This document shows, one piece after another, positions 2,064 through 56,825 of a DNA stretch of 64,000 bases. The notes under the pieces are model-generated. The model worked only from the letters and a program-made list of their open reading frames with translations, did not search any database and was not told the DNA's origin. The stretch is from Clostridia bacterium (GTDB lineage Bacteria; Bacillota; Clostridia; Oscillospirales; CAG-272). Location of the stretch: assembly GCA_017504405.1 (NCBI GenBank), contig JAFVRG010000021.1, positions 89,929 to 153,928 of the forward strand, in the 5' to 3' direction. The position numbers were made by a program, and so were the translations under genes. How positions within the stretch are numbered: the first letter of the stretch is position 1; each line of letters opens with the position of its first letter.

Positions 2064-2103
2064 ATCAAAAAAGAGAACTATTCTATCGCTTTTGAGGTGT
2101 AAT

Positions 2104-2907
2104 ATGAACACTATTGTTTCAGAATCACAGCTTTCACACTTTAATATAAGGCACTACCGACATCATGACGGATACAGATTTGATACCGTCAATGAGCCTC
2201 GTCCTTTGTATTCCCTTGCCTTGATAACTCACGGTGATGGGGAGCTTTTTGACGTTGACAATTCCACAACCGTATCGGTAACGGTTGGAGATTTATTGTT
2301 TATCCCTGTTTTTTCTAAGTATAAGTCGGTATGGAAAAATAACGCATCTTATACGTCAATTCATTTTTTGTTCGGTGACAAATCCTATTTCAACAGCAAC
2401 AATATTCTGAGAATTCAAAAAATAACCCCCGACAATAAAGAACGTATAAGGGAAATATTTGATTACCTCACTAATTTCAACAGCGCTTGCGTATCGCAAA
2501 GGTTAAAGGCTACCTCAATATTTTATGAGTTACTTGAAGTAGTAACGAGAAAAATAAGAAGGCGGCATTCTGTCACCTATGATAAAACAATAATTACAGT
2601 TATGAGATACGTACAAGAAAATTTCTCAAAAAAAATCACCGTTGAGGATTTGGCGTTAAGCGTTAATATGAGCCTATCGAGATTTTTCCCTTATTTTAAG
2701 AAAAAAGTAGGACTTACGCCCGTTGAATATATCAACAAATACAGGATTGAACAGGCATGCATTATGCTTATAAATTCGAGGGAAATGCCGATTGAGGAAA
2801 TCTCCGACAGAGTAGGCTTTGAATCTGCGGCATACTTCCGCAGGGTTTTCAAAAAGGCAATTAATCTAACACCCAAGCAATACCGCCAAAATCCCCCGAT
2901 TTTATAG
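2104..2907 (+). CDS. AraC family transcriptional regulator
   Basis: C-terminal double HTH (ITVEDLALSVNMSLSRFFPYFKKKVGLTPVEYINKYRIEQA...AYFRRVFKK). The track ORF begins at a TTG. The ATG at 2104 has a GAGGTG RBS 5 nt upstream. Confidence 0.85.
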   Translation: MNTIVSESQLSHFNIRHYRHHDGYRFDTVNEPRPLYSLALITHGDGELFDVDNSTTVSVTVGDLLFIPVFSKYKSVWKNNASYTSIHFLFGDKSYFNSNNILRIQKITPDNKERIREIFDYLTNFNSACVSQRLKATSIFYELLEVVTRKIRRRHSVTYDKTIITVMRYVQENFSKKITVEDLALSVNMSLSRFFPYFKKKVGLTPVEYINKYRIEQACIMLINSREMPIEEISDRVGFESAAYFRRVFKKAINLTPKQYRQNPPIL

Positions 2908-2916
2908 TAATACAAC

Positions 2917-2944
2917 AAAAAGGAGCGTTAGTGACGCTCCTTTT
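2917..2944. terminator. bidirectional hairpin terminator between convergent araC genes
   Basis: AAAAGGAGCG-ttagtga-CGCTCCTTTT with an A-run on one side and a T-run on the other. The right arm overlaps the last codons of the minus-strand gene. Confidence 0.5.
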
Positions 2945-3749
2945 GCTTATGTAGGGACGGCGGATATCCCGTTATGCGGCGGAAAACCGTGCTGAAATAG
3001 TTCTGATTGGAAAAGCCGAGGGTGTCCGATACCTCGGAAACGGCCATTCCCTGCTCGAGCATATTCATTGCCGCCGTTATCTTCAAATGATTAAAATAAT
3101 TCATAACACCCACGCCCGCATATCGGGAAAAGGTCTTTTTAAGGTTTATTTCGCTCATATTGCAAAGACGGGCGATTTCCGAAATGCTAAGGCTCTTATC
3201 AACGTTATTTGTGAGTATGTTAACAGCCATAGCATAGTTTTTTGCGGTTTTTGACTGAGATACAGACGAGTGCGAATATTTCTTTGATACCGTGCTGAGG
3301 ATATACCGTTCAAGGTCCTTAACCGCCCGCTGCCAATCGAGAGAATCAATATTTTTAATTGATTTAACGTCACCTGCAAAAATATTATAAGCATCCGATA
3401 TTTCTTTAAAAACGTTTACGGCTTCATCTGCATCTACATCAAATATTTTAGAAAAAAATTTCGGCATATTATCGGCGGCAAAGGTGAAGATTGCGATAGT
3501 TGGGCTGGTTAAATTTTCACTCCACAGTCGGTGAAATTCCATCGGCTCGTGTAAAATCGCCTGCCCTTTTTTTAGCAAAAATACATCCTTTCCTGCACAT
3601 ACGCCGATTTCTCCGTCCAAAACCACCACTATCTCCCAAAAATTATGATACTCACCGTCATAATTATAGTCGCTATCATATTTTCTGATAAACGCAGTAT
3701 ACAGAGTTTTAATGACAAAGCTCCCTTTTATATCAACGTAACCGTGCAT
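2928..3749 (-). CDS. AraC family transcriptional regulator
   Basis: 273 aa with a cupin-like N-terminus and a C-terminal AraC HTH (LSISEIARLCNMSEINLKKTFSRYAGVGVMNYFNHLKITAA...NYFSTVFRRITG). AGGAGA RBS upstream. Confidence 0.85.
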   Translation of the reverse strand: MHGYVDIKGSFVIKTLYTAFIRKYDSDYNYDGEYHNFWEIVVVLDGEIGVCAGKDVFLLKKGQAILHEPMEFHRLWSENLTSPTIAIFTFAADNMPKFFSKIFDVDADEAVNVFKEISDAYNIFAGDVKSIKNIDSLDWQRAVKDLERYILSTVSKKYSHSSVSQSKTAKNYAMAVNILTNNVDKSLSISEIARLCNMSEINLKKTFSRYAGVGVMNYFNHLKITAAMNMLEQGMAVSEVSDTLGFSNQNYFSTVFRRITGYPPSLHKQKERH

Positions 3750-3886
3750 AAAGCTATCTCCTGTTTTTTATACAAAATTATAGATTTTTTATATTTTTTC
3801 GTATATAAATTTGATTTTGTATATGATATGATAGTAGCATAGTAAGGTTTTTTTGTCAATACCCAATTACAAGAAAGGATAAAAAC

Positions 3887-5149
3887 ATGAAAAAACTAAC
3901 CGCTATTGTTATGGGCTACGGAATGAGGGGGCAGTCCTATTCTTCCTATGCGATTGATAATCCCGAAAAGCTCGAAATCGTTGCAGTTGCAGAGCCGGAA
4001 AAGAGCCGTAGGCTCTATGCTCAGCGCCGTCACAATTTATCCGAGGATATGCTCTTTGATGACTGGGAAAAGCTCGCCGAGCTACCCAAAATGGCTGATT
4101 TTGCTATCATATCTACTCAGGACAAAATGCACCTTGAGCCTGCGCTCGCCTGCATTGAAAAGGGCTATGACCTGCTTCTCGAAAAGCCTATGGCTCCTAC
4201 CGCCGAGGAATGTAAAATAATATACGAGGCGGCAGAGAAAAAGGGGGTCAAGGTTGTCGTTTGCCACGTTCTTCGATTTACTCCCTTCTGGTATAAATTA
4301 AAAGAACTACTTGACGAGGGGGCAATAGGTGAGGTAAGATCTATAATACATATGGAAAACGTCGGCAATATGCACTACTCTCATAGCTACGTCAGAGGAA
4401 ACTGGAGAAACACCGCCGAGTCCTCAGCAATGATACTTGCAAAGAGCTGTCACGACACCGATATAGTTCAATGGCTGCTCGGCAAGGATTGCAAAAAGGT
4501 ACAATCCTTCGGCTCATATTCCGTATTTACAAAAGAAAATCAACCGAAGGGTGCGCCCGACAGATGCCTTGACGGCTGTCCCTATATGGACTCCTGCCTA
4601 TACAACCCCGTAAAGTTTTACGTAGAAGACAAAGAAAACGGATGGAGAGATACCGTAGCCGATAAGGTTGACGCAACCGATGAGGAAATAACCGAGGCTC
4701 TGCGTACAGGTCCATACGGAAGATGTGTTTATGCCTGTGACAACGACGTTGTTGACCATCAGGTTGTAAATATGGAATTTGATGGCGGCGCAACCGTTTC
4801 CTTTACAATGAGCGCATTCAATAAGGGTGGCAGATTCATAAGAATTTTCGGAACAAAGGGCGAAATTGTAGCTTCACACGCGAATAGCGAAATAACCGTT
4901 TGCCCCTTCGGCAAGCCGAACTACGTTGCAGAAATAGATAAAATAGGCGAGAGCATCACCAGCGGACACGGCGGCGGAGATACGGGAATCATGGTTGACT
5001 CCGTTAAGTATTTCAATAACGAGCAGCCCAGTAAATCAGTATGCGACCTGCGCACGTCCTATCTAAATCACCTCATCTGCTTTGCGGCGGAAAAATCAAG
5101 AGCTGAGGATTCCGTTGTGGATTTAGATAAATTCTCAGAATCAGTTTAA
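3887..5149 (+). CDS. Gfo/Idh/MocA family oxidoreductase
   Basis: 420 aa. N-terminal Rossmann segment MKKLTAIVMGYGMRGQSY...EKPMAPT is typical of the family. RBS AAAGGA. Confidence 0.85.
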   Translation: MKKLTAIVMGYGMRGQSYSSYAIDNPEKLEIVAVAEPEKSRRLYAQRRHNLSEDMLFDDWEKLAELPKMADFAIISTQDKMHLEPALACIEKGYDLLLEKPMAPTAEECKIIYEAAEKKGVKVVVCHVLRFTPFWYKLKELLDEGAIGEVRSIIHMENVGNMHYSHSYVRGNWRNTAESSAMILAKSCHDTDIVQWLLGKDCKKVQSFGSYSVFTKENQPKGAPDRCLDGCPYMDSCLYNPVKFYVEDKENGWRDTVADKVDATDEEITEALRTGPYGRCVYACDNDVVDHQVVNMEFDGGATVSFTMSAFNKGGRFIRIFGTKGEIVASHANSEITVCPFGKPNYVAEIDKIGESITSGHGGGDTGIMVDSVKYFNNEQPSKSVCDLRTSYLNHLICFAAEKSRAEDSVVDLDKFSESV

Positions 5150-5153
5150 ATAG

Positions 5154-5193
5154 AAAAACCAAGGTCTTTTCTACCCCTATGACCTTGGTTTTT
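5154..5193. terminator. bidirectional intrinsic terminator
   Basis: AAAAACCAAGGTC-14 nt loop-GACCTTGGTTTTT between convergent genes. Confidence 0.6.
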
Positions 5194-5214
5194 CTTTTAT
5201 TCAGTTTAATGCTG

Positions 5215-6000
5215 TTAATCGACGTTAACGCCTTTTTTGAACATATGGTTGCACAAAAAGTAGAACGCAACCGAAAATGCGGCATATGCTCCCATTCCGA
5301 CAAGCATAACCGTCATAAAGCCGCCCTGCGACATTTGCTCTGCCAAAAGCTCGGATATGTTACCTCCTATTGCGAGAGCGACTGCCATCAGCAAAAGCGC
5401 CGTAATCATTGCGCCGAAATAGTAAGCAATAAACCACATAACGCCCCTCGACACCCTTTTGGTGTTGTAGGTGTTTGCCTTAACTACCGCTGTAAATGCC
5501 ATACTCATAAGCGTACATATCTGGAAAAAGACTATCAACACAATAATGGTTATAAAAAGACCGCCTGATATGTTAAATCCCGCAATCGTCGCAGCCAAAA
5601 GAGCCTTCACGGTTGAAAAGAAGGTATCGCTATACAGCATTATGAGTAGCGATGCTACGCATACAGCAACACTTAAAAGCACCACAATGAGGGCACTCAG
5701 ATATTTTGATATGAGCAGCTGCTCCTTTTTTACGGGTAGCGTGTGGGTTAAATAGCTCTCGTCCTTATAAAAGCTCTTGATAAATACTGCAAGTATTGTA
5801 ATAAAGGTGTTTATCAGCACCGATGCTATAGCAGAATAAACGAGGCTCGAAAACACACTACCAATAATTGAAAAAACCTGAATGTCTTTACCTATATTTA
5901 TAATTCTCGTTATGACGGCCAAAAGAAGAGTTATTGCGTAAATGTACGGAATAAATCCGAGCATCTTCTTTACGTCGTATTTCATCAGTCTTCTTATCAT
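5215..6000 (-). CDS. ABC-2-type transporter permease (multi-pass membrane protein)
   Basis: 261 aa and highly hydrophobic, with about 6 predicted TM stretches by eye. Its start overlaps the stop of the ATPase gene (ATGA). Confidence 0.7.
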   Translation of the reverse strand: MIRRLMKYDVKKMLGFIPYIYAITLLLAVITRIINIGKDIQVFSIIGSVFSSLVYSAIASVLINTFITILAVFIKSFYKDESYLTHTLPVKKEQLLISKYLSALIVVLLSVAVCVASLLIMLYSDTFFSTVKALLAATIAGFNISGGLFITIIVLIVFFQICTLMSMAFTAVVKANTYNTKRVSRGVMWFIAYYFGAMITALLLMAVALAIGGNISELLAEQMSQGGFMTVMLVGMGAYAAFSVAFYFLCNHMFKKGVNVD

Positions 6001-6689
6001 TTTACAATTCTCCTGAATATCTCGTCTATCGAGGAATTTTCTCTTTCTCGCAGCTCCTCGGCATTTTCCGAAAGTATAATCCGTCCCTTGTCAATAAAAA
6101 CTACCTCATCAAGTATTTTCTCAACGTCGTAAATTAAGTGAGTCGTTATCAGCATAGCGGAGCCTTCGGAAAAATTGGAAAGTATTGTTTTCATAATACG
6201 GTCACGTGTTGAGGGGTCAACACCGCCGAGCGGCTCGTCAAGAATATAGAGGTCTGCCGTTCTGCTCATAACCAAAATCAGCTGGACTTTTTCCTTCATA
6301 CCCTTACTCATTTTGGAAAGCTTCATATTCTCGTCAAGGTCAAGGTCGGCAAGGAGAGCTCTCGCCTTTTCTCGGTCAAAATCGGGGTAAAAATCCTCAA
6401 AAAAATCAAAAATTGCCGATACCGTCTGAGCGCTGTCGAGGTAGGTGCGCTCGGGCAGATATGAAACCCTCGCCTTTGTTTTTTCGCTGATTTTTTCGCC
6501 CTTTATCAATATTTCACCCGCATCAATTGTGAGAAGGTCATTTATCATTTTGATTACGGTTGATTTTCCGCTTCCGTTTTTGCCGAGTAAACCTACGATT
6601 TTTCCCTCGCCTACGGAAAAGCTGACGTTATCAATAATTTTTATGCCGTCAAAGCTCTTACTTACCGATTTTATATCAAGAACACTCAT
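5997..6689 (-). CDS. ABC transporter ATP-binding protein
   Basis: Walker A GKNGSGKST, signature MSKGMKEKV, Walker B LYILDEP. Overlaps the gntR stop. Confidence 0.9.
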   Translation of the reverse strand: MSVLDIKSVSKSFDGIKIIDNVSFSVGEGKIVGLLGKNGSGKSTVIKMINDLLTIDAGEILIKGEKISEKTKARVSYLPERTYLDSAQTVSAIFDFFEDFYPDFDREKARALLADLDLDENMKLSKMSKGMKEKVQLILVMSRTADLYILDEPLGGVDPSTRDRIMKTILSNFSEGSAMLITTHLIYDVEKILDEVVFIDKGRIILSENAEELRERENSSIDEIFRRIVK

Positions 6690-7048
6690 TTTTTCACCTC
6701 AGAGTTTAATATTTTTTGAATTTCCGCCCGTGTCAAGCCAAGGCTCTCCATTGAGCCGTAAAAATTATCAATCATTTCACTGATAGTTTGCATCTTAACC
6801 TTAGAAATAATATCGGTATCTCCCGTTACAAATTTACCGTTTGTTCTCTCGGTATAGATAAGTCCCATTCCTTCAAGCTCGGCGAGCGCTCGCAAAACGG
6901 TATTCGGGTTTACCTCATACTGCAATGAAAGCTCTCTAACCGACGGAAGTTTGTCGTTAGGACAATATTCACGGCTGATTATCTTAGTTTTAATATGCTC
7001 TATTATTTGAAGATAAATAGGTGTATCATTACTAAAGCTATATCCCAT
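6686..7048 (-). CDS. GntR family (YtrA-like) transcriptional regulator
   Basis: 120 aa. Winged-HTH segment KLPSVRELSLQYEVNPNTVLRALAELEGMGLIYTERTNGKFV. It is the first gene of a gntR-ABC ATPase-permease operon, the arrangement typical of the YtrA subfamily. Confidence 0.85.
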   Translation of the reverse strand: MGYSFSNDTPIYLQIIEHIKTKIISREYCPNDKLPSVRELSLQYEVNPNTVLRALAELEGMGLIYTERTNGKFVTGDTDIISKVKMQTISEMIDNFYGSMESLGLTRAEIQKILNSEVKK

Positions 7049-7059
7049 ATTCCCCTCAC

Positions 7060-7108
7060 TGTATTACTTAACCAATACAATGATACACCATTCTTTTTCG
7101 TTTGTCAA
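7060..7108 (-). promoter_or_regulatory. promoter of the gntR operon plus a candidate operator
   Basis: On the minus strand: TTGACA (7103-7108), 17-nt spacer, TATCAT (7080-7085). This is followed immediately by the inverted repeat TGTATT-N8-AATACA (7060-7079) between the -10 and the RBS. Confidence 0.45.
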
Positions 7109-7177
7109 GACCTTTTTGTGTTTTTCTAAAAAAGTGTTGATTTTCATTATATTGTATTGAGCGTATTCTAACTTAAA

Positions 7178-7410
7178 ATCAAGGCAAAATCCTTGTATAT
7201 CATCAATTTCGAGAGAAATTGTATATCATCAACACAAAGTGTTGTATAGACGCTCGCAGGCTCGCTATTCCGTCGCTTCGCTCCTTACATCAAGCCGCAG
7301 GAGAATCCAGCCCCAGAGGGGCTGATGAGATACAAGGGCGGCTCGCCGCCCTTGCATGATATGCGCCGCACTTCGTGCGTCGATGATATGCCAAGCCTGC
7401 GGCTTGGATA
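7178..7410. repeat. hairpin/10-mer array, copy A (partly degenerate)
   Basis: GTATATCATC at 7195-7204 and 7221-7230, with a degenerate third copy at 7244-7253. Reverse-complement-like copies are GATGAGATAC 7324-7333, CATGATATGC 7355-7364 and GATGATATGC 7382-7391. Spacers are perfect hairpins at 7180-7195, 7205-7220, 7231-7243, 7308-7324, 7333-7354, 7367-7379 and 7391-7407. Confidence 0.7.
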
Positions 7411-7453
7411 AAAAAATACTGCAGAAAATATGTCATTTTCTGCAGTGTTTTTT
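7409..7453 (-). terminator. intrinsic terminator downstream of the orphan ORF (bidirectional shape)
   Basis: CTGCAGAAAAT-atgtc-ATTTTCTGCAG flanked by an A-run and a T-run, about 80 nt after the stop at 7536. Confidence 0.6.
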
Positions 7454-7535
7454 GCGAAAGAGCGACCAAAAGGTGCGTAAAGTAGGGTAAGAACGACTAA
7501 AAGTACACCACATGTGCCGCGAGATAAATTGGAAT

Positions 7536-7907
7536 TTATATTTCTGAGTAATAATGGCGCACCAACACCCAACTTTTCTTTTTCTTCTCTGTTTTATGCT
7601 CAATTCCGAAATCACTGCAACCCAACAGAACAGCTATATGAACCCTTTTATCTTCGCTATTGATGTCTTGAATTAAACTTATTACATTACAATTATCTTC
7701 GTGAAAATGACCAATTTCAAATAATTTACTTTTGCGACGTGAATACAAAACGGTAGTTTCACGATTATCAACAAGAAAACGCAAAAAAATGCCGCCCAAA
7801 TCCCATGAAAATTCATTATCACTTATTATTTCCACCGCTCCCTTTAATTTGGCAGAGTTTACAAATTCCATCACAGCTAAAACTTCTTCTTTATTGTCTA
7901 CACTCAT
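7536..7907 (-). CDS. hypothetical protein, 123 aa, no family recognised
   Basis: ATG-initiated ORF with its own promoter (see 7951-7979), a GGAG 12 nt upstream, and a terminator. It is markedly AT-rich compared with its neighbours. Confidence 0.55.
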   Translation of the reverse strand: MSVDNKEEVLAVMEFVNSAKLKGAVEIISDNEFSWDLGGIFLRFLVDNRETTVLYSRRKSKLFEIGHFHEDNCNVISLIQDINSEDKRVHIAVLLGCSDFGIEHKTEKKKKSWVLVRHYYSEI

Positions 7908-7950
7908 ATTTATTATTTACTCCACTAAATTCTTATTTATCAGTGAGTTT

Positions 7951-7979
7951 ATTATATCACACTATCGTAAATAAATCAA
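7951..7979 (-). promoter_or_regulatory. sigma-A-type promoter of the orphan ORF
   Basis: Minus strand: TTGATT (7974-7979), 17-nt spacer, TGaTATAAT (7951-7959). The -35 overlaps the first hairpin arm of array B. Confidence 0.5.
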
Positions 7980-8147
7980 GGCTAAACCTTGTATATCATC
8001 CGCAACTTGTTGCGGTATATCATCAAAACGCAGTTTTGTATATCATCATTGCGAAAGCGATGCAACCTGCGGTTGATGATATACGCCTGCGGCGATGATA
8101 TCCAACCTTAAGGGCTGATGATATACCATTGCTATCGCAATGGATAC
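7975..8147. repeat. hairpin/10-mer array, copy B (clean copy)
   Basis: Three perfect GTATATCATC (7991-8000, 8015-8024, 8038-8047). Then GATGATATAC (8075-8084, 8117-8126) and GATGATATCC (8094-8103). Spacers are hairpins at 7977-7991, 8001-8014, 8025-8037, 8047-8062, 8063-8075, 8085-8093 and 8126-8143. Confidence 0.8.
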
Positions 8148-8177
8148 AAAAAACGACAGGCAACACCTGTCGTTTTT
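8147..8177 (-). terminator. intrinsic terminator of tRNA-Leu
   Basis: ACGACAGG-caaca-CCTGTCG with a T-run on the minus strand, immediately after the tRNA CCA end. Confidence 0.7.
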
Positions 8178-8261
8178 TGGTGCGGGCGACAGGAATTGAA
8201 CCTGCACATCGGAGATACCAGATCCTAAGTCTGGCGCGTCTGCCAATTCCGCCACGCCCGC
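8178..8261 (-). tRNA. tRNA-Leu (anticodon UAG), class II with long variable arm, CCA encoded
   Basis: The reverse complement reads GCGGGCGTGGCGGAATTGGCAGACGCGCCAGACTTAGGATCTGGTATCTCCGATGTGCAGGTTCAATTCCTGTCGCCCGCACCA. Acceptor GCGGGCG/CGCCCGC, anticodon stem CCAGA/TCTGG with loop CTTAGGA, and a GGTTCAATTCC T-loop. Confidence 0.95.
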
Positions 8262-11910: not shown

Positions 11911-11916
11911 TATAAA

Positions 11917-11957
11917 CGTGAGTTCGTAACCATCCTCACGAAAAACAAAACTAAGGA
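11917..11957 (+). promoter_or_regulatory. preQ1-I riboswitch
   Basis: CGUGAG-UUCGUAACCAUC-CUCACG hairpin followed by the A-rich tail AAAAACAAAACUAAGGAG, which includes the SD. It sits directly upstream of queT, the classic context. Confidence 0.75.
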
Positions 11958-11964
11958 GATAAAA

Positions 11965-56721: not shown

Positions 56722-56825
56722 CTCTACCTTACCTCTCTTAAAAGCCTTATAATATTGCCCGTAGACGGATTTAAACCGCCACCTTTGAAACCAACGCTCT
56801 CACTTAAGCTATCAGGGCATATAAA

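Follow-up and report, generated by a model that had tools for sequence, protein, structure and literature searches.

Arrays A and B, the two structured repeat arrays that flank a 123-aa open reading frame (ORF) beside a tRNA-Leu gene, are independent, complete copies of a polar, near-palindromic and probably multicopy intergenic element of gut Clostridia. Their closest known relative is the Gut-1 RNA motif, of which they would form a sister family. The interpretation that we favour, at about even confidence, is that the arrays are REP/BIME-like single-strand hairpin repeats used as terminator-to-promoter punctuation, by a mechanism that we infer from the observations below. The window, that is the whole 64-kb stretch of DNA that was analysed, contains two array copies. 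The original prediction gave the minus-strand order as tRNA-Leu, its terminator, array B, promoter, 123-aa ORF, terminator, array A and gntR promoter, and this order is borne out by the following features:

8178..8261, minus strand: tRNA-Leu, anticodon tag (ARAGORN; Rfam, 59.1 bits)
8147..8179, minus strand: bidirectional intrinsic terminator (A-tract, 14-bp stem, T-tract) that is the head of array B (perfect inverted repeat I12)
7973..8146, minus strand: array B (inverted repeats, linker copies, folding)
7951..7979, minus strand: ORF promoter, TTGATT-17-TATAAT with TG extension (consensus scan, 10/12 plus TG)
7536..7907, minus strand: 123-aa ORF, an accessory gene (ORF with homologues of conserved length)
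7408..7458, minus strand: bidirectional ORF terminator that is the head of array A (inverted repeat I5, 19 nt, 95% complementary; terminator scan)
7176..7407, minus strand: array A (inverted repeats, linker copies, folding)
7249..7287, minus strand: GC-rich 39-nt insertion inside array A (splits a linker exactly at GATG^(A)TATAC)
7080..7108, minus strand: gntR-operon promoter, TTGACA-17-TATCAT (consensus scan, 11/12)

The encoded CCA of tRNA-Leu abuts the A-tract of its terminator (arms 8147-8160 and 8166-8179) with a spacer of zero. Read on the minus strand, array B then consists of a T hairpin (8143-8126), three GTATATCATC linkers (8126-8117, 8103-8094 and 8084-8075) with a hairpin after each, a centre complementary to T (8058-8048), three GATGATATAC linkers (8047-8038, 8024-8015 and 8000-7991) with their hairpins, and a final hairpin, P1 (7991-7977), followed by TGATTT. 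The -35 box of the ORF promoter, TTGATT, overlaps the 3' arm of P1 and is followed by a 17-nt spacer and TGaTATAAT. When aligned, array B matches 33 canonical 3+3 arrays from other genomes column by column. Array A follows the stem of the ORF terminator (7446-7418, minus strand) with a T hairpin (7407-7391), further linkers and hairpins, a centre complementary to T (7301-7292), a first inverted linker interrupted by the insertion, two GATGATATAC linkers (7230-7221 and 7204-7195) and a P1 hairpin (7195-7180); the gntR-operon promoter lies about 70 nt past it. The homologous outer ends of the two arrays are as earlier quoted, and the arrays have the same orientation. Internally neither is a simple direct-repeat array: in each, three linkers are followed by three reverse-complement linkers. 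With up to one mismatch allowed, the 10-mer GTATATCATC occurs 17 times in the window, compared to 3.6 expected, a number reached by 0/100 shuffles; arrays A and B hold all seven exact copies and three of the one-mismatch copies. Their hairpins, of 11-22 nt, vary in sequence, and whichever strand is folded, both arrays do much better than shuffled sequence (z = -4.4 to -7.3).

At least 120 loci of the element were identified in Clostridia metagenome-assembled genomes (MAGs), and among the matches listed canonical arrays are found in Clostridia MAGs only, with Oscillospiraceae, Acutalibacteraceae and relatives as hosts. Several MAGs carry arrays on two contigs, and contig breaks inside arrays suggest that the element is multicopy. 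The order of parts is A-tract/terminator/T-tract, T hairpin, two to three repeats of GTATATCATC plus hairpin, the T-complementary centre, two to three repeats of hairpin plus GATGATATAC, and a last hairpin, whose 3' arm often doubles as the -35 box of the promoter that follows. This layout is two-fold symmetric over about 130-150 bp and has the 3+3 configuration in 38 of 67 arrays; read on the tRNA strand, the GTATATCATC-type block comes first and the UGAUAU-type block second in all 84 mixed arrays.

The element is usually single and placed between a terminator and the next promoter, with its head fused to the end of the upstream gene, in array B directly to the tRNA-Leu CCA. In 33 of 60 arrays, the first linker is preceded at 52-62 nt by the end of a tRNA (14 types) or tmRNA on the same strand, and in these the element starts exactly at the CCA; the other 27 follow protein-gene terminators without a tRNA. 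Arrays are also found after rRNA-operon terminators. The junction of CCA with AAAAA is present in 40/42 array-associated terminal tRNAs, as against 4/28 tRNAs without an array, and one identical head (44-nt terminator, T hairpin and first linker; 85 nt, 100%) stands after four different tRNAs in four species. Polarity tracks the upstream transcription unit (33/33 tRNAs). Orientation set by replication was rejected, as GC skew agrees in only 39/61 loci. The next gene is co-stranded in 47/55 cases, and a promoter is found at fixed offsets in 30 of 63 arrays, 19 with the -35 box in P1 and 11 with a second promoter class 30 nt further on. Unidirectional arrays also occur within operons, some of them housekeeping operons, between co-directional genes. 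The 105 genes downstream of arrays are diverse and for the most part ordinary.

Selection acts on the structure of the hairpins. In local hairpins 97-99% of positions pair and double changes are numerous, and the observed covariation was reached by 0/500 shuffles. The helix between T and the centre is 99% paired with covariation in four of six pairs; there are seven T/centre types, including matching loops, and the mean complementary run is 9.1 nt, compared to 6.1 nt with partners shuffled. A P1:centre closure mirroring T:centre was sought and gave no signal. The linkers are conserved in sequence, with an invariant 8-bp core and no covariation among themselves. Single-sequence and RNAalifold predictions propose a nested rod of 10-bp linker helices with four-way junctions, a fold that we reject because linker variants break the putative pair instead of covarying: this holds for all of the variable linker positions, in 20, 11, 8 and 7 of 34 arrays.

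Strand preference can be seen in the stems and loops. G.T wobbles outnumber A.C mismatches by 32 to 12 on the GTATATCATC strand (p = 0.004), triloops are GNA in 87/122 cases, loops of the G...A form make up 59%, and GNRA and UUCG tetraloops are few. Stem wobbles and loops favour folding of whichever strand reads GTATATCATC, and this strand changes from one half of the array to the other. GNA triloops closed by C-G, as in the d(GCGAAGC)-type mini-hairpins, are a hallmark of stable DNA hairpins, not RNA.

Another possibility is that the arrays act as a double-stranded DNA platform, in which a nucleoid, roadblock or topoisomerase-type protein would bind six to eight asymmetric 10-bp sites arranged as two opposed blocks. 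Such a platform would stop read-through RNA polymerase or absorb supercoils after highly transcribed genes, with BIME-2 and gyrase as precedent. The invariant linker core without pairing covariation, the two-fold symmetry over about 130-150 bp, and the position of arrays after tRNA, tmRNA and rRNA-operon terminators and ahead of promoters would all suit it. However, it leaves unexplained the compensatory changes in the hairpin spacers, the strand bias of wobbles, the GNA loops, and the complementarity of T and centre down to the loop, and with sites spaced 19 to 31 bp apart helical phasing is lost. We regard it as very improbable.

The Gut-1 motif (RF01706) was described by Weinberg et al. in 2010 and rated 'certainly RNA' (PMC2864571); it entered Rfam in 2010 and has stayed an orphan "sRNA" there, recorded from human-gut reads only, and no function or later literature was found for it. 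It consists of three or more short hairpins with UUC/UGC-type loops and a conserved 7-nt linker, GUGAUAU or GUGAAAU (PMC2864571). Both families have in common the hairpin-linker grammar and the UGAUAU core, and the Gut-1 alignment itself includes the context of the arrays: tRNA or stop codon, terminator, centre-complementary first hairpin and inverted modules (BAAZ01025322, BAAZ01000095). The two differ in the linker, a 10-mer, GAUGAUAUAC, in the arrays, and in block order on the tRNA strand, where the GTATATCATC-type block is first in the arrays and the GUGAUAU type in Gut-1. The Rfam model spans one half of an array only, and the description of Gut-1 is without dyad architecture, CCA junction, promoter or variability. 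Scores against the model are 32.6 bits for locus L018, 30.4 bits for L068 and 19.1 bits for array B of the window (8055-8129), all below the Rfam gathering score of 50 bits, and array A has no match at E<=10. Gut-1-type (GTGATAT) arrays and the present family occur on the same contigs, separately. Among known RNA families, only the tRNA reaches the Rfam threshold in the region or window.

Following the annotation of Gut-1, the arrays could be structured non-coding or cis-acting RNA, which we judge unlikely. The RNA would come from read-through past a leaky terminator, or from antisense transcription that stops at the bidirectional terminator. Its modules of hairpin and AU-rich linker, together with a T/anti-T switch, would provide fail-safe termination, a point of entry for RNase, or insulation of the next promoter from strong tRNA transcription, with a protein reading the linkers. 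Covarying hairpins and the long-range T:centre helix are what such an RNA would have, and polarity is strict to the upstream transcription unit, with arrays directly after the T-tract. In each module a GC-rich hairpin leads into an 8-nt tract with 7/8 A/U, and P1 plus ATTTATTT has a terminator-like score in the terminator scan. Arrays within operons lie between co-directional genes and must therefore be transcribed, and the discoverers of Gut-1 gave the rating 'RNA: Y'. However, a strong terminator stands before the array and the next promoter behind it, so that little sense RNA is expected. For the antisense direction there is no conserved promoter, with weak scattered matches in 19/63 arrays, and the consensus scan of the plus strand found none in the window. 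An independent antisense sRNA gene was also rejected, as its apparent -10, upstream of AAATCA, is the complement of the sense-strand TATAAT. Each half of the array is optimised to fold on the strand opposite to that of the other half, and the loops are mostly C-G-closed GNA triloops of DNA type. Gut-1 has the opposite block order relative to the terminator, and thus no single transcript logic covers both families. Strain-level replacement of modules would also be unusual for a functional RNA.

This replacement is seen directly. Arrays are strain-variable mosaics built from a shared hairpin vocabulary, which duplicate modules and take up insertions at one fixed linker bond. In another strain of the same species, the first half of array B differs, while the second half and the ORF are identical, and contigs end inside array A in the same-species comparison. 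In another strain, array A opens with an identical T-F1-h1 and continues with different modules. Several extra genes, one of them a WapI-like immunity gene, are inserted at array A in another strain of the species. Tandem module duplications were observed in arrays, and insertions at GATG^ATATAC in four arrays. The 39-mer of array A has an identical copy in another species (L057), at the same linker position and in the same polarity, and L010 and L118 carry a 34-mer at that position. By contrast with such turnover, three orthologous arrays behind one tRNA operon (L024, L037 and L072) have kept their module order and show compensatory changes, a pattern that looks like long-term functional constraint rather than selfish turnover.

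REP, BIME and REPIN sequences with RAYT (PMC3733652) are similarly located at extragenic gene 3' ends, consist of opposed short imperfect palindromes and form strain-variable mosaics. Their hairpins act single-stranded, and the roles proposed for them are termination, mRNA stability and supercoiling. In the REP/BIME-like reading that we prefer, the working unit would be a single-stranded hairpin with its linker, read by a putative sequence-specific factor that probably nicks or joins at GATG^ATATAC; a nick site at this bond is suggested by the four insertions. Recombination at linkers would allow arrays to gain, lose and exchange modules, and arrays would spread together with their own terminator to gene 3' ends, where the host would retain them as punctuation between terminator and promoter. 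Small accessory genes such as the 123-aa ORF would enter and leave at arrays because arrays are shared sequence.

Several points speak against this reading. REPs conserve a palindrome of 20-40 bp with a GTAG or CGTC tag and vary their linkers; here the reverse is the case, with variable hairpins and a conserved linker, and GTAG is absent from arrays A and B, with CGTC incidental only. The fixed fusion to a terminator and tRNA CCA is a feature of the arrays and not of REPs. No RAYT gene was seen near arrays (about 4 kb), and no HUH/Y1 transposase or other recombinase recurs within that distance. Polarity set by the upstream transcription unit fits a transcription-linked, possibly RNA-level role equally well or better. 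The apparent constraint on L024, L037 and L072 and the rating of Gut-1 by Weinberg et al. are further points against the REP/BIME-like reading.

The 123-aa ORF is compositionally foreign. It had been described as AT-richer than its neighbours, and its GC is the lowest of the 57 ORFs of the window (0.336, median 0.466), with a GC3 of 0.29 compared to a median of 0.51. Low GC is also seen in the gntR operon. Eighty homologues of conserved length were found. Homologues with 49-96% identity occupy at least six unrelated genomic contexts, mostly without an array. The ORF is a separate accessory gene with its own promoter and terminator, independent of the arrays. Searches of Pfam, NCBIfam, PDB sequences and Foldseek gave no match that would indicate a function; the AlphaFold model has a pLDDT of 92.7 and no significant match in fold search, and the ORF does not resemble the cassette gene that neighbours it in the other strain.

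The arrays had been taken as terminal repeats of one self-contained mobile element. This does not hold, as each array is complete, dispersed and usually single, and homologues of the ORF are mostly array-free. The more general proposal of a mobile-islet layout survives in part: the ORF is foreign, the locus is variable and array-bracketed genes exist elsewhere, but there is no target duplication in the window and the arrays are not element ends. The earlier failure to find a duplicated tRNA-Leu 3' segment at the far end was repeated window-wide with 10- to 23-mers at up to three mismatches. Among same-species contigs, some of them broken in arrays, no strain without the ORF at this locus was found, and the closest relatives of the locus recovered through GntR in a metagenome scan have 53% identity or less. 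In other genomes accessory genes are bracketed singly by two arrays (L004, L046, L051 and L089), and in L026 and L053 an array is part of an insertion of 1.1-1.6 kb, on either side of which the tRNA 3' end is directly repeated; the distal repeat present there is absent for tRNA-Leu in the window. Given the foreign ORF, the array-bracketed genes, the strain insertion and the L026 and L053 repeats, the locus is a variable, acquisition-prone spot beside a tRNA, and the arrays are recombination-prone punctuation, not transposon ends. An origin from a phage or plasmid was rejected: blastn gave no match, and one of 56 viral pattern matches was a true array. Type III antitoxin, CRISPR-like, DNA-uptake-sequence and iteron identities were also rejected, as modules are non-identical, no toxin or cas gene is adjacent, and exact linkers occur only in arrays.

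The tRNA 3'-end repeats raise the question of whether arrays belong to integrase-less cassettes that integrate at the tRNA 3' end (T-loop) with a tyrosine integrase acting in trans, a scenario that seems to us quite unlikely. The 10-mers would be arm-type integrase sites on a P' arm, and tRNA-Leu, array B, ORF, array A and gntR would be an accreted series of cassettes with a decayed far repeat. Integrase arm sites are typically 10 bp long and present in both orientations (lambda-type attP). L026 and L053 show the succession tRNA, terminator, array, promoter, PF05635 gene, cargo, terminator, GC-rich segment and tRNA-3'-end repeat, the repeat being exact over 17 nt or longer and the native site beyond it being without an array. 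At seven loci the array is immediately preceded by one or two additional tRNA 3' fragments, each with its own terminator, a sign of serial insertions; the element head begins exactly at CCA, and the ORF and gntR operon are both GC-poor. However, 27 of 60 arrays follow protein-gene terminators and some lie within housekeeping operons, and the 105 downstream genes are mostly ordinary, with no integrase (Phage_integrase family) among the families listed for them. One head behind many different tRNAs is disallowed by classical attP-attB identity, arm sites leave the covarying hairpins between them unexplained, and the window has no displaced tRNA-Leu fragment.

A further proposal, which we consider distinctly unlikely, makes the arrays folded single-strand recombination sites of a hitherto unrecognised gene-cassette system of gut Clostridia, functionally analogous to integron attC and served by an unrelated enzyme at GATG^ATATAC. 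Such a system would sit immediately behind the CCA of tRNA or tmRNA genes of any kind and would capture and shuffle small defence, immunity and toxin-antitoxin-like genes (PF05635 operons, the WapI-like gene, the 123-aa ORF), and the PF05635 four-helix-bundle protein might be its nucleic-acid-binding partner. Integron attC sites are imperfect palindromes of about 60-140 bp, conserved in structure over sequence and folded strand-specifically, and, like them, the arrays separate small accessory ORFs of atypical composition. A regex search of both strands of arrays A and B found no attC cores (RYYYAAC...GTTRRRY), and no IntI-type integrase is among the families listed for the 105 downstream genes. 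Unlike in an integron, cassettes at arrays have their own promoters and terminators, and arrays are mostly single, beside ordinary genes. The neisserial NIME (dRS3/RS) and Correia elements also alternate a short conserved repeat with variable modules of a shared vocabulary, are hot spots of insertion and recombination, and may carry promoter elements. They are unrelated in sequence and taxa, NIME modules are not known to be short hairpins, and neither element is known to be anchored to a terminator or tRNA CCA.

Gut-1 and its sister family can now be placed in identifiable organisms, the Oscillospiraceae and Acutalibacteraceae of ruminant and human guts, and the published Gut-1 motif is only one half of a larger element, a polar dyad that is joined without a gap to terminators and to the CCA of tRNA and tmRNA genes. 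In practical terms, arrays break metagenome assemblies and flag hypervariable loci. Opposite-strand optimisation, DNA-type loops, the lack of a promoter, strain mosaicism and linker-centred insertions are evidence that the element may work at the level of DNA and not as an sRNA. If so, a major gut clade that has been little studied would have its own REP/BIME-like system, and arrays would point to the places at which accessory and defence genes are swapped.

The two hairpin-linker arrays that flank a 123-aa ORF in the window, array B nearer tRNA-Leu and array A beyond the ORF, are copies of a widespread element, which is a new sister variant of the known, uncharacterised Gut-1 motif (Rfam RF01706). 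The original prediction's description of this region, an AT-rich islet with an orphan ORF between two structured arrays, is correct, and its parts are as follows:

8261-8178 (-): tRNA-Leu(tag)
Between tRNA-Leu and array B (-): perfect bidirectional terminator, its A-tract beginning immediately past the encoded CCA of tRNA-Leu
8146-7973 (-): array B
7979-7951 (-): canonical promoter of the ORF, TTGATT-17-TGaTATAAT
7907-7536 (-): 123-aa ORF
Between the ORF and array A (-): second bidirectional terminator
7407-7176 (-): array A
7108-7080 (-): promoter of the gntR operon, about 70 nt past array A

The last promoter leads into genes for a GntR regulator and an ABC transporter. The 10-mer GTATATCATC occurs in the window in 17 copies at no more than one mismatch, against 3.6 expected, and all exact copies (7/7) lie within arrays A and B. 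Both arrays fold far better than shuffled controls, and the ORF has the minimum GC and GC3 among the window's 57 ORFs. The arrays themselves are real, their description now being refined by an inverted interior (three linkers, a centre and three reverse-complement linkers) and by a 39-nt insertion that splits one array A linker. Several genes downstream of tRNA-Leu (the ORF, gntR, the ABC genes, 2092-2907 and 2928-3749) are among the window's lowest in GC, and the low GC across 2092-7907 suggests a larger low-GC variable region adjoining the tRNA.

A pattern scan of species-representative genomes returned at least 120 stretches. Among the matches listed, the true arrays belong to Clostridia MAGs (Oscillospiraceae, Acutalibacteraceae, Faecousia, Limivicinus, Ruminococcus and others) chiefly from ruminant, pig or human guts, and the few matches from other phyla lack the array architecture. 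Within the same matches, 84 arrays share the order of GTATATCATC-type linkers first and GATGATATAC-type second, and 38 of the 67 orientable arrays have the exact 3+3 form. Unidirectional arrays of up to 12 modules also occur, as does a variant linker, GTATGGAATC. Searches for arrays in plasmid and phage collections gave zero matches, and viral contigs yielded one true array only.

Orientation of the element was defined by the end bearing GGATAAAAAA. From its start it reads A-tract, terminator, T-tract, ATCC, the first hairpin (T), n modules of linker F plus hairpin, the centre, n modules of hairpin plus the inverted linker R, the last hairpin (P1) and TGATTT. Among the matches listed, a tRNA or tmRNA on the same strand ends 52–62 nt before the first linker in 33 of the 60 arrays with enough upstream sequence; these tRNAs are of 14 isoacceptor types, and the CCA runs into the A-tract without a spacer in 33/33. 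The fetched loci contain 70 terminal tRNAs, and among these the junction is present in 40/42 with an array vs 4/28 without. An 85-nt head (terminator, T hairpin and first linker) is 100% identical behind four different tRNAs in four species, the identity setting in exactly past the CCA and the remainder of each array being a different mosaic. At the other end, again among the matches listed, 19/63 arrays have a TTGATT -35 box that overlaps P1 in its 3' arm and is followed 17 nt on by TATAAT, a second promoter class lies 30 nt more distant in 11/63, and the following gene is co-directional in 47/55.

Structure was examined in an alignment of 34 canonical arrays. The local hairpins are 97–99% paired with numerous double compensatory changes, and their covariation was attained by 0/500 shuffles. 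The T hairpin finds the complement of its 5' arm and loop in the centre, and T and centre covary across seven types, loops included; their mean complementary run is 9.1 nt, vs 6.1 nt with shuffled partners, and of six register-stable pairs (99% paired) four covary. All energy-based folds give a nested pairing of F with R linkers, which was rejected: varying linker positions break the putative pair in 20, 11, 8 and 7 of the 34 arrays, so that the linkers are conserved for sequence and not for mutual pairing. Strand bias in the hairpins goes with the orientation of the linker. The strand reading GTATATCATC has 32 G.T wobbles vs 12 A.C mismatches (p = 0.004); of its 122 triloops, 87 are GNA closed by C-G, and G...A makes up 59% of all its loops. 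With the halves inverted, each half favours a different strand.

The arrays are also variable. A second same-species strain has other modules in the first half of array B, beside a second half and an ORF that are identical; in another strain the second half of array A differs, and several contigs terminate within array A. Tandem duplication of modules is seen, and four arrays (window 7249-7287, and loci L057, L010 and L118 from other contigs) carry extra DNA exactly at the linker site GATG^(A)TATAC, as GC-rich inserts of 39 or 34 nt; in L010 and L118 the site is the first inverted linker. The 39-mer at window 7249-7287 is identical to that at L057 ~4908-4946, in another species; the linkers concerned differ, and the polarity of the insert with respect to them is the same.

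In the same-species sample ERZ27256852, the array after the ORF starts like array A and then runs on into different modules and a promoter of its own. Behind it lie a 118-aa ORF, a WapI-like immunity gene, a lyase fragment and more; this strain-specific segment (L207 5130-7268, L202 1-200) is inserted at hairpin h1 of array A and brings that array remainder and promoter with it. The rest of array A and gntR come next, on a separate contig. Array pairs flanking single accessory genes recur elsewhere. Among the matches listed, 11 loci (L005, L017, L026, L030, L044, L053, L081, L095, L100, L117 and L118) have, directly behind the array and beside different tRNAs, a highly similar gene of PF05635, the 23S rRNA intervening-sequence protein, an Avd-like four-helix bundle. 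Translational coupling links it to a second gene that differs between loci (NTP_transf_2, AAA_21 ATPase, small membrane proteins, unknowns). At two of these loci, L026 and L053, exact repeats of the tRNA 3' end enclose the entire unit (terminator, array, PF05635 gene, cargo), and serial tRNA-fragment duplications immediately precede the array at seven loci. The window itself has no displaced tRNA-Leu fragment, as originally noted. The locus is nevertheless a variable spot, and the proposed acquisition beside a tRNA is partly supported, but the arrays are recombination-prone punctuation at a tRNA-side spot, not the ends of one element. Upstream of displaced tRNA 3' fragments in L018, L026, L078 and L118 is a conserved GC-rich segment of ~130–170 nt that starts with a T-arm complement, includes the CAGTCCGGNGGACTG hairpin and has the tRNA 3' fragment at its far end. 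This segment is a candidate for a structured RNA or for an attachment site's other arm.

The ORF encodes a genuine protein of 123 aa. Its 80 homologues are conserved in length, AlphaFold models it with confidence (pLDDT 92.7), and a search for family or fold relatives detected none. Homologues with 55–88% identity are found behind RNase E/G, UDG and dUTPase, near dnaA and elsewhere, mostly without an array; one is preceded by a short array of Gut-1 type. ORF and arrays are therefore independent. At loci L127-L132, L121 and L126, whose contexts are otherwise unrelated, the gene family has a conserved 60–80-nt 3' region (...ACTTTCAAATGAAAGTCGTGTGTTTTGC...) before its terminator; the window copy lacks this region. 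Elsewhere in the window, a preQ1-I riboswitch-like match at 11912-11960 (+), 36.3 bits against a gathering score of 39, is probably genuine, since its position between asnA and a QueT-family gene is the usual context. A tRNA-like structure at 56756-56818 (-), 35.6 bits with the Rfam tRNA model and not called by ARAGORN, precedes a small zinc-ribbon ORF by ~35 nt and may represent either a 5' leader or the relic of a tRNA.

As to function, we infer, at about an even chance, that the element acts as a REP/BIME-like single-strand-DNA repeat. GNA triloops closed by C-G, classic stable DNA mini-hairpins, are common in the arrays and RNA-typical tetraloops few, which favours action as DNA. So do the position of the arrays, with a strong terminator before them and a promoter after, the lack of any conserved antisense promoter, the optimisation of their halves on opposite strands, and their behaviour as dynamic repeats (strain-variable modules, tandem duplication, GATG^(A)TATAC insertions). 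The block order of Gut-1 is moreover the reverse, so that no single transcript logic suits both families. A transcription-linked role, possibly as RNA, seems rather unlikely to us, even though polarity tracks the upstream gene (33/33 tRNAs) rather than replication (39/61 loci by GC skew), orthologous arrays retain module order with compensatory changes, some unidirectional arrays sit within operons, and Gut-1 was judged RNA by its discoverers (PMC2864571).

In a permissive Rfam search, Gut-1 matches below the gathering score of 50 fall exactly on arrays (L018, 32.6 bits; L068, 30.4; window array B, 19.1). The Gut-1 consensus has three hairpins with GUGAAAU or GUGAUAU between them, and it was reported from human-gut reads only, as a probable sRNA without a function (PMC2864571); we found no later literature on it. 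In the published Stockholm file with flanks, its context is that of the arrays here: a tRNA or stop codon, a terminator, and a first hairpin, UAUAUUCGCC, complementary to the centre, GGCGAAUAUA, with inverted AUAUCAC modules next (PMC2864571). The families are told apart by their linkers and by the order in which the blocks follow the terminator. Named MAGs also contain true Gut-1-type arrays, whose linkers are GTGATAT or GTGAAAT (L019, L059, L066, L071, L001); sometimes one contig carries both such an array and a GTATATCATC-type array, in some cases in tandem behind the same tRNA. A motif reported only from the human gut is now placed in Acutalibacteraceae and other Clostridia, and the architecture of the element is far fuller than that previously described for Gut-1.
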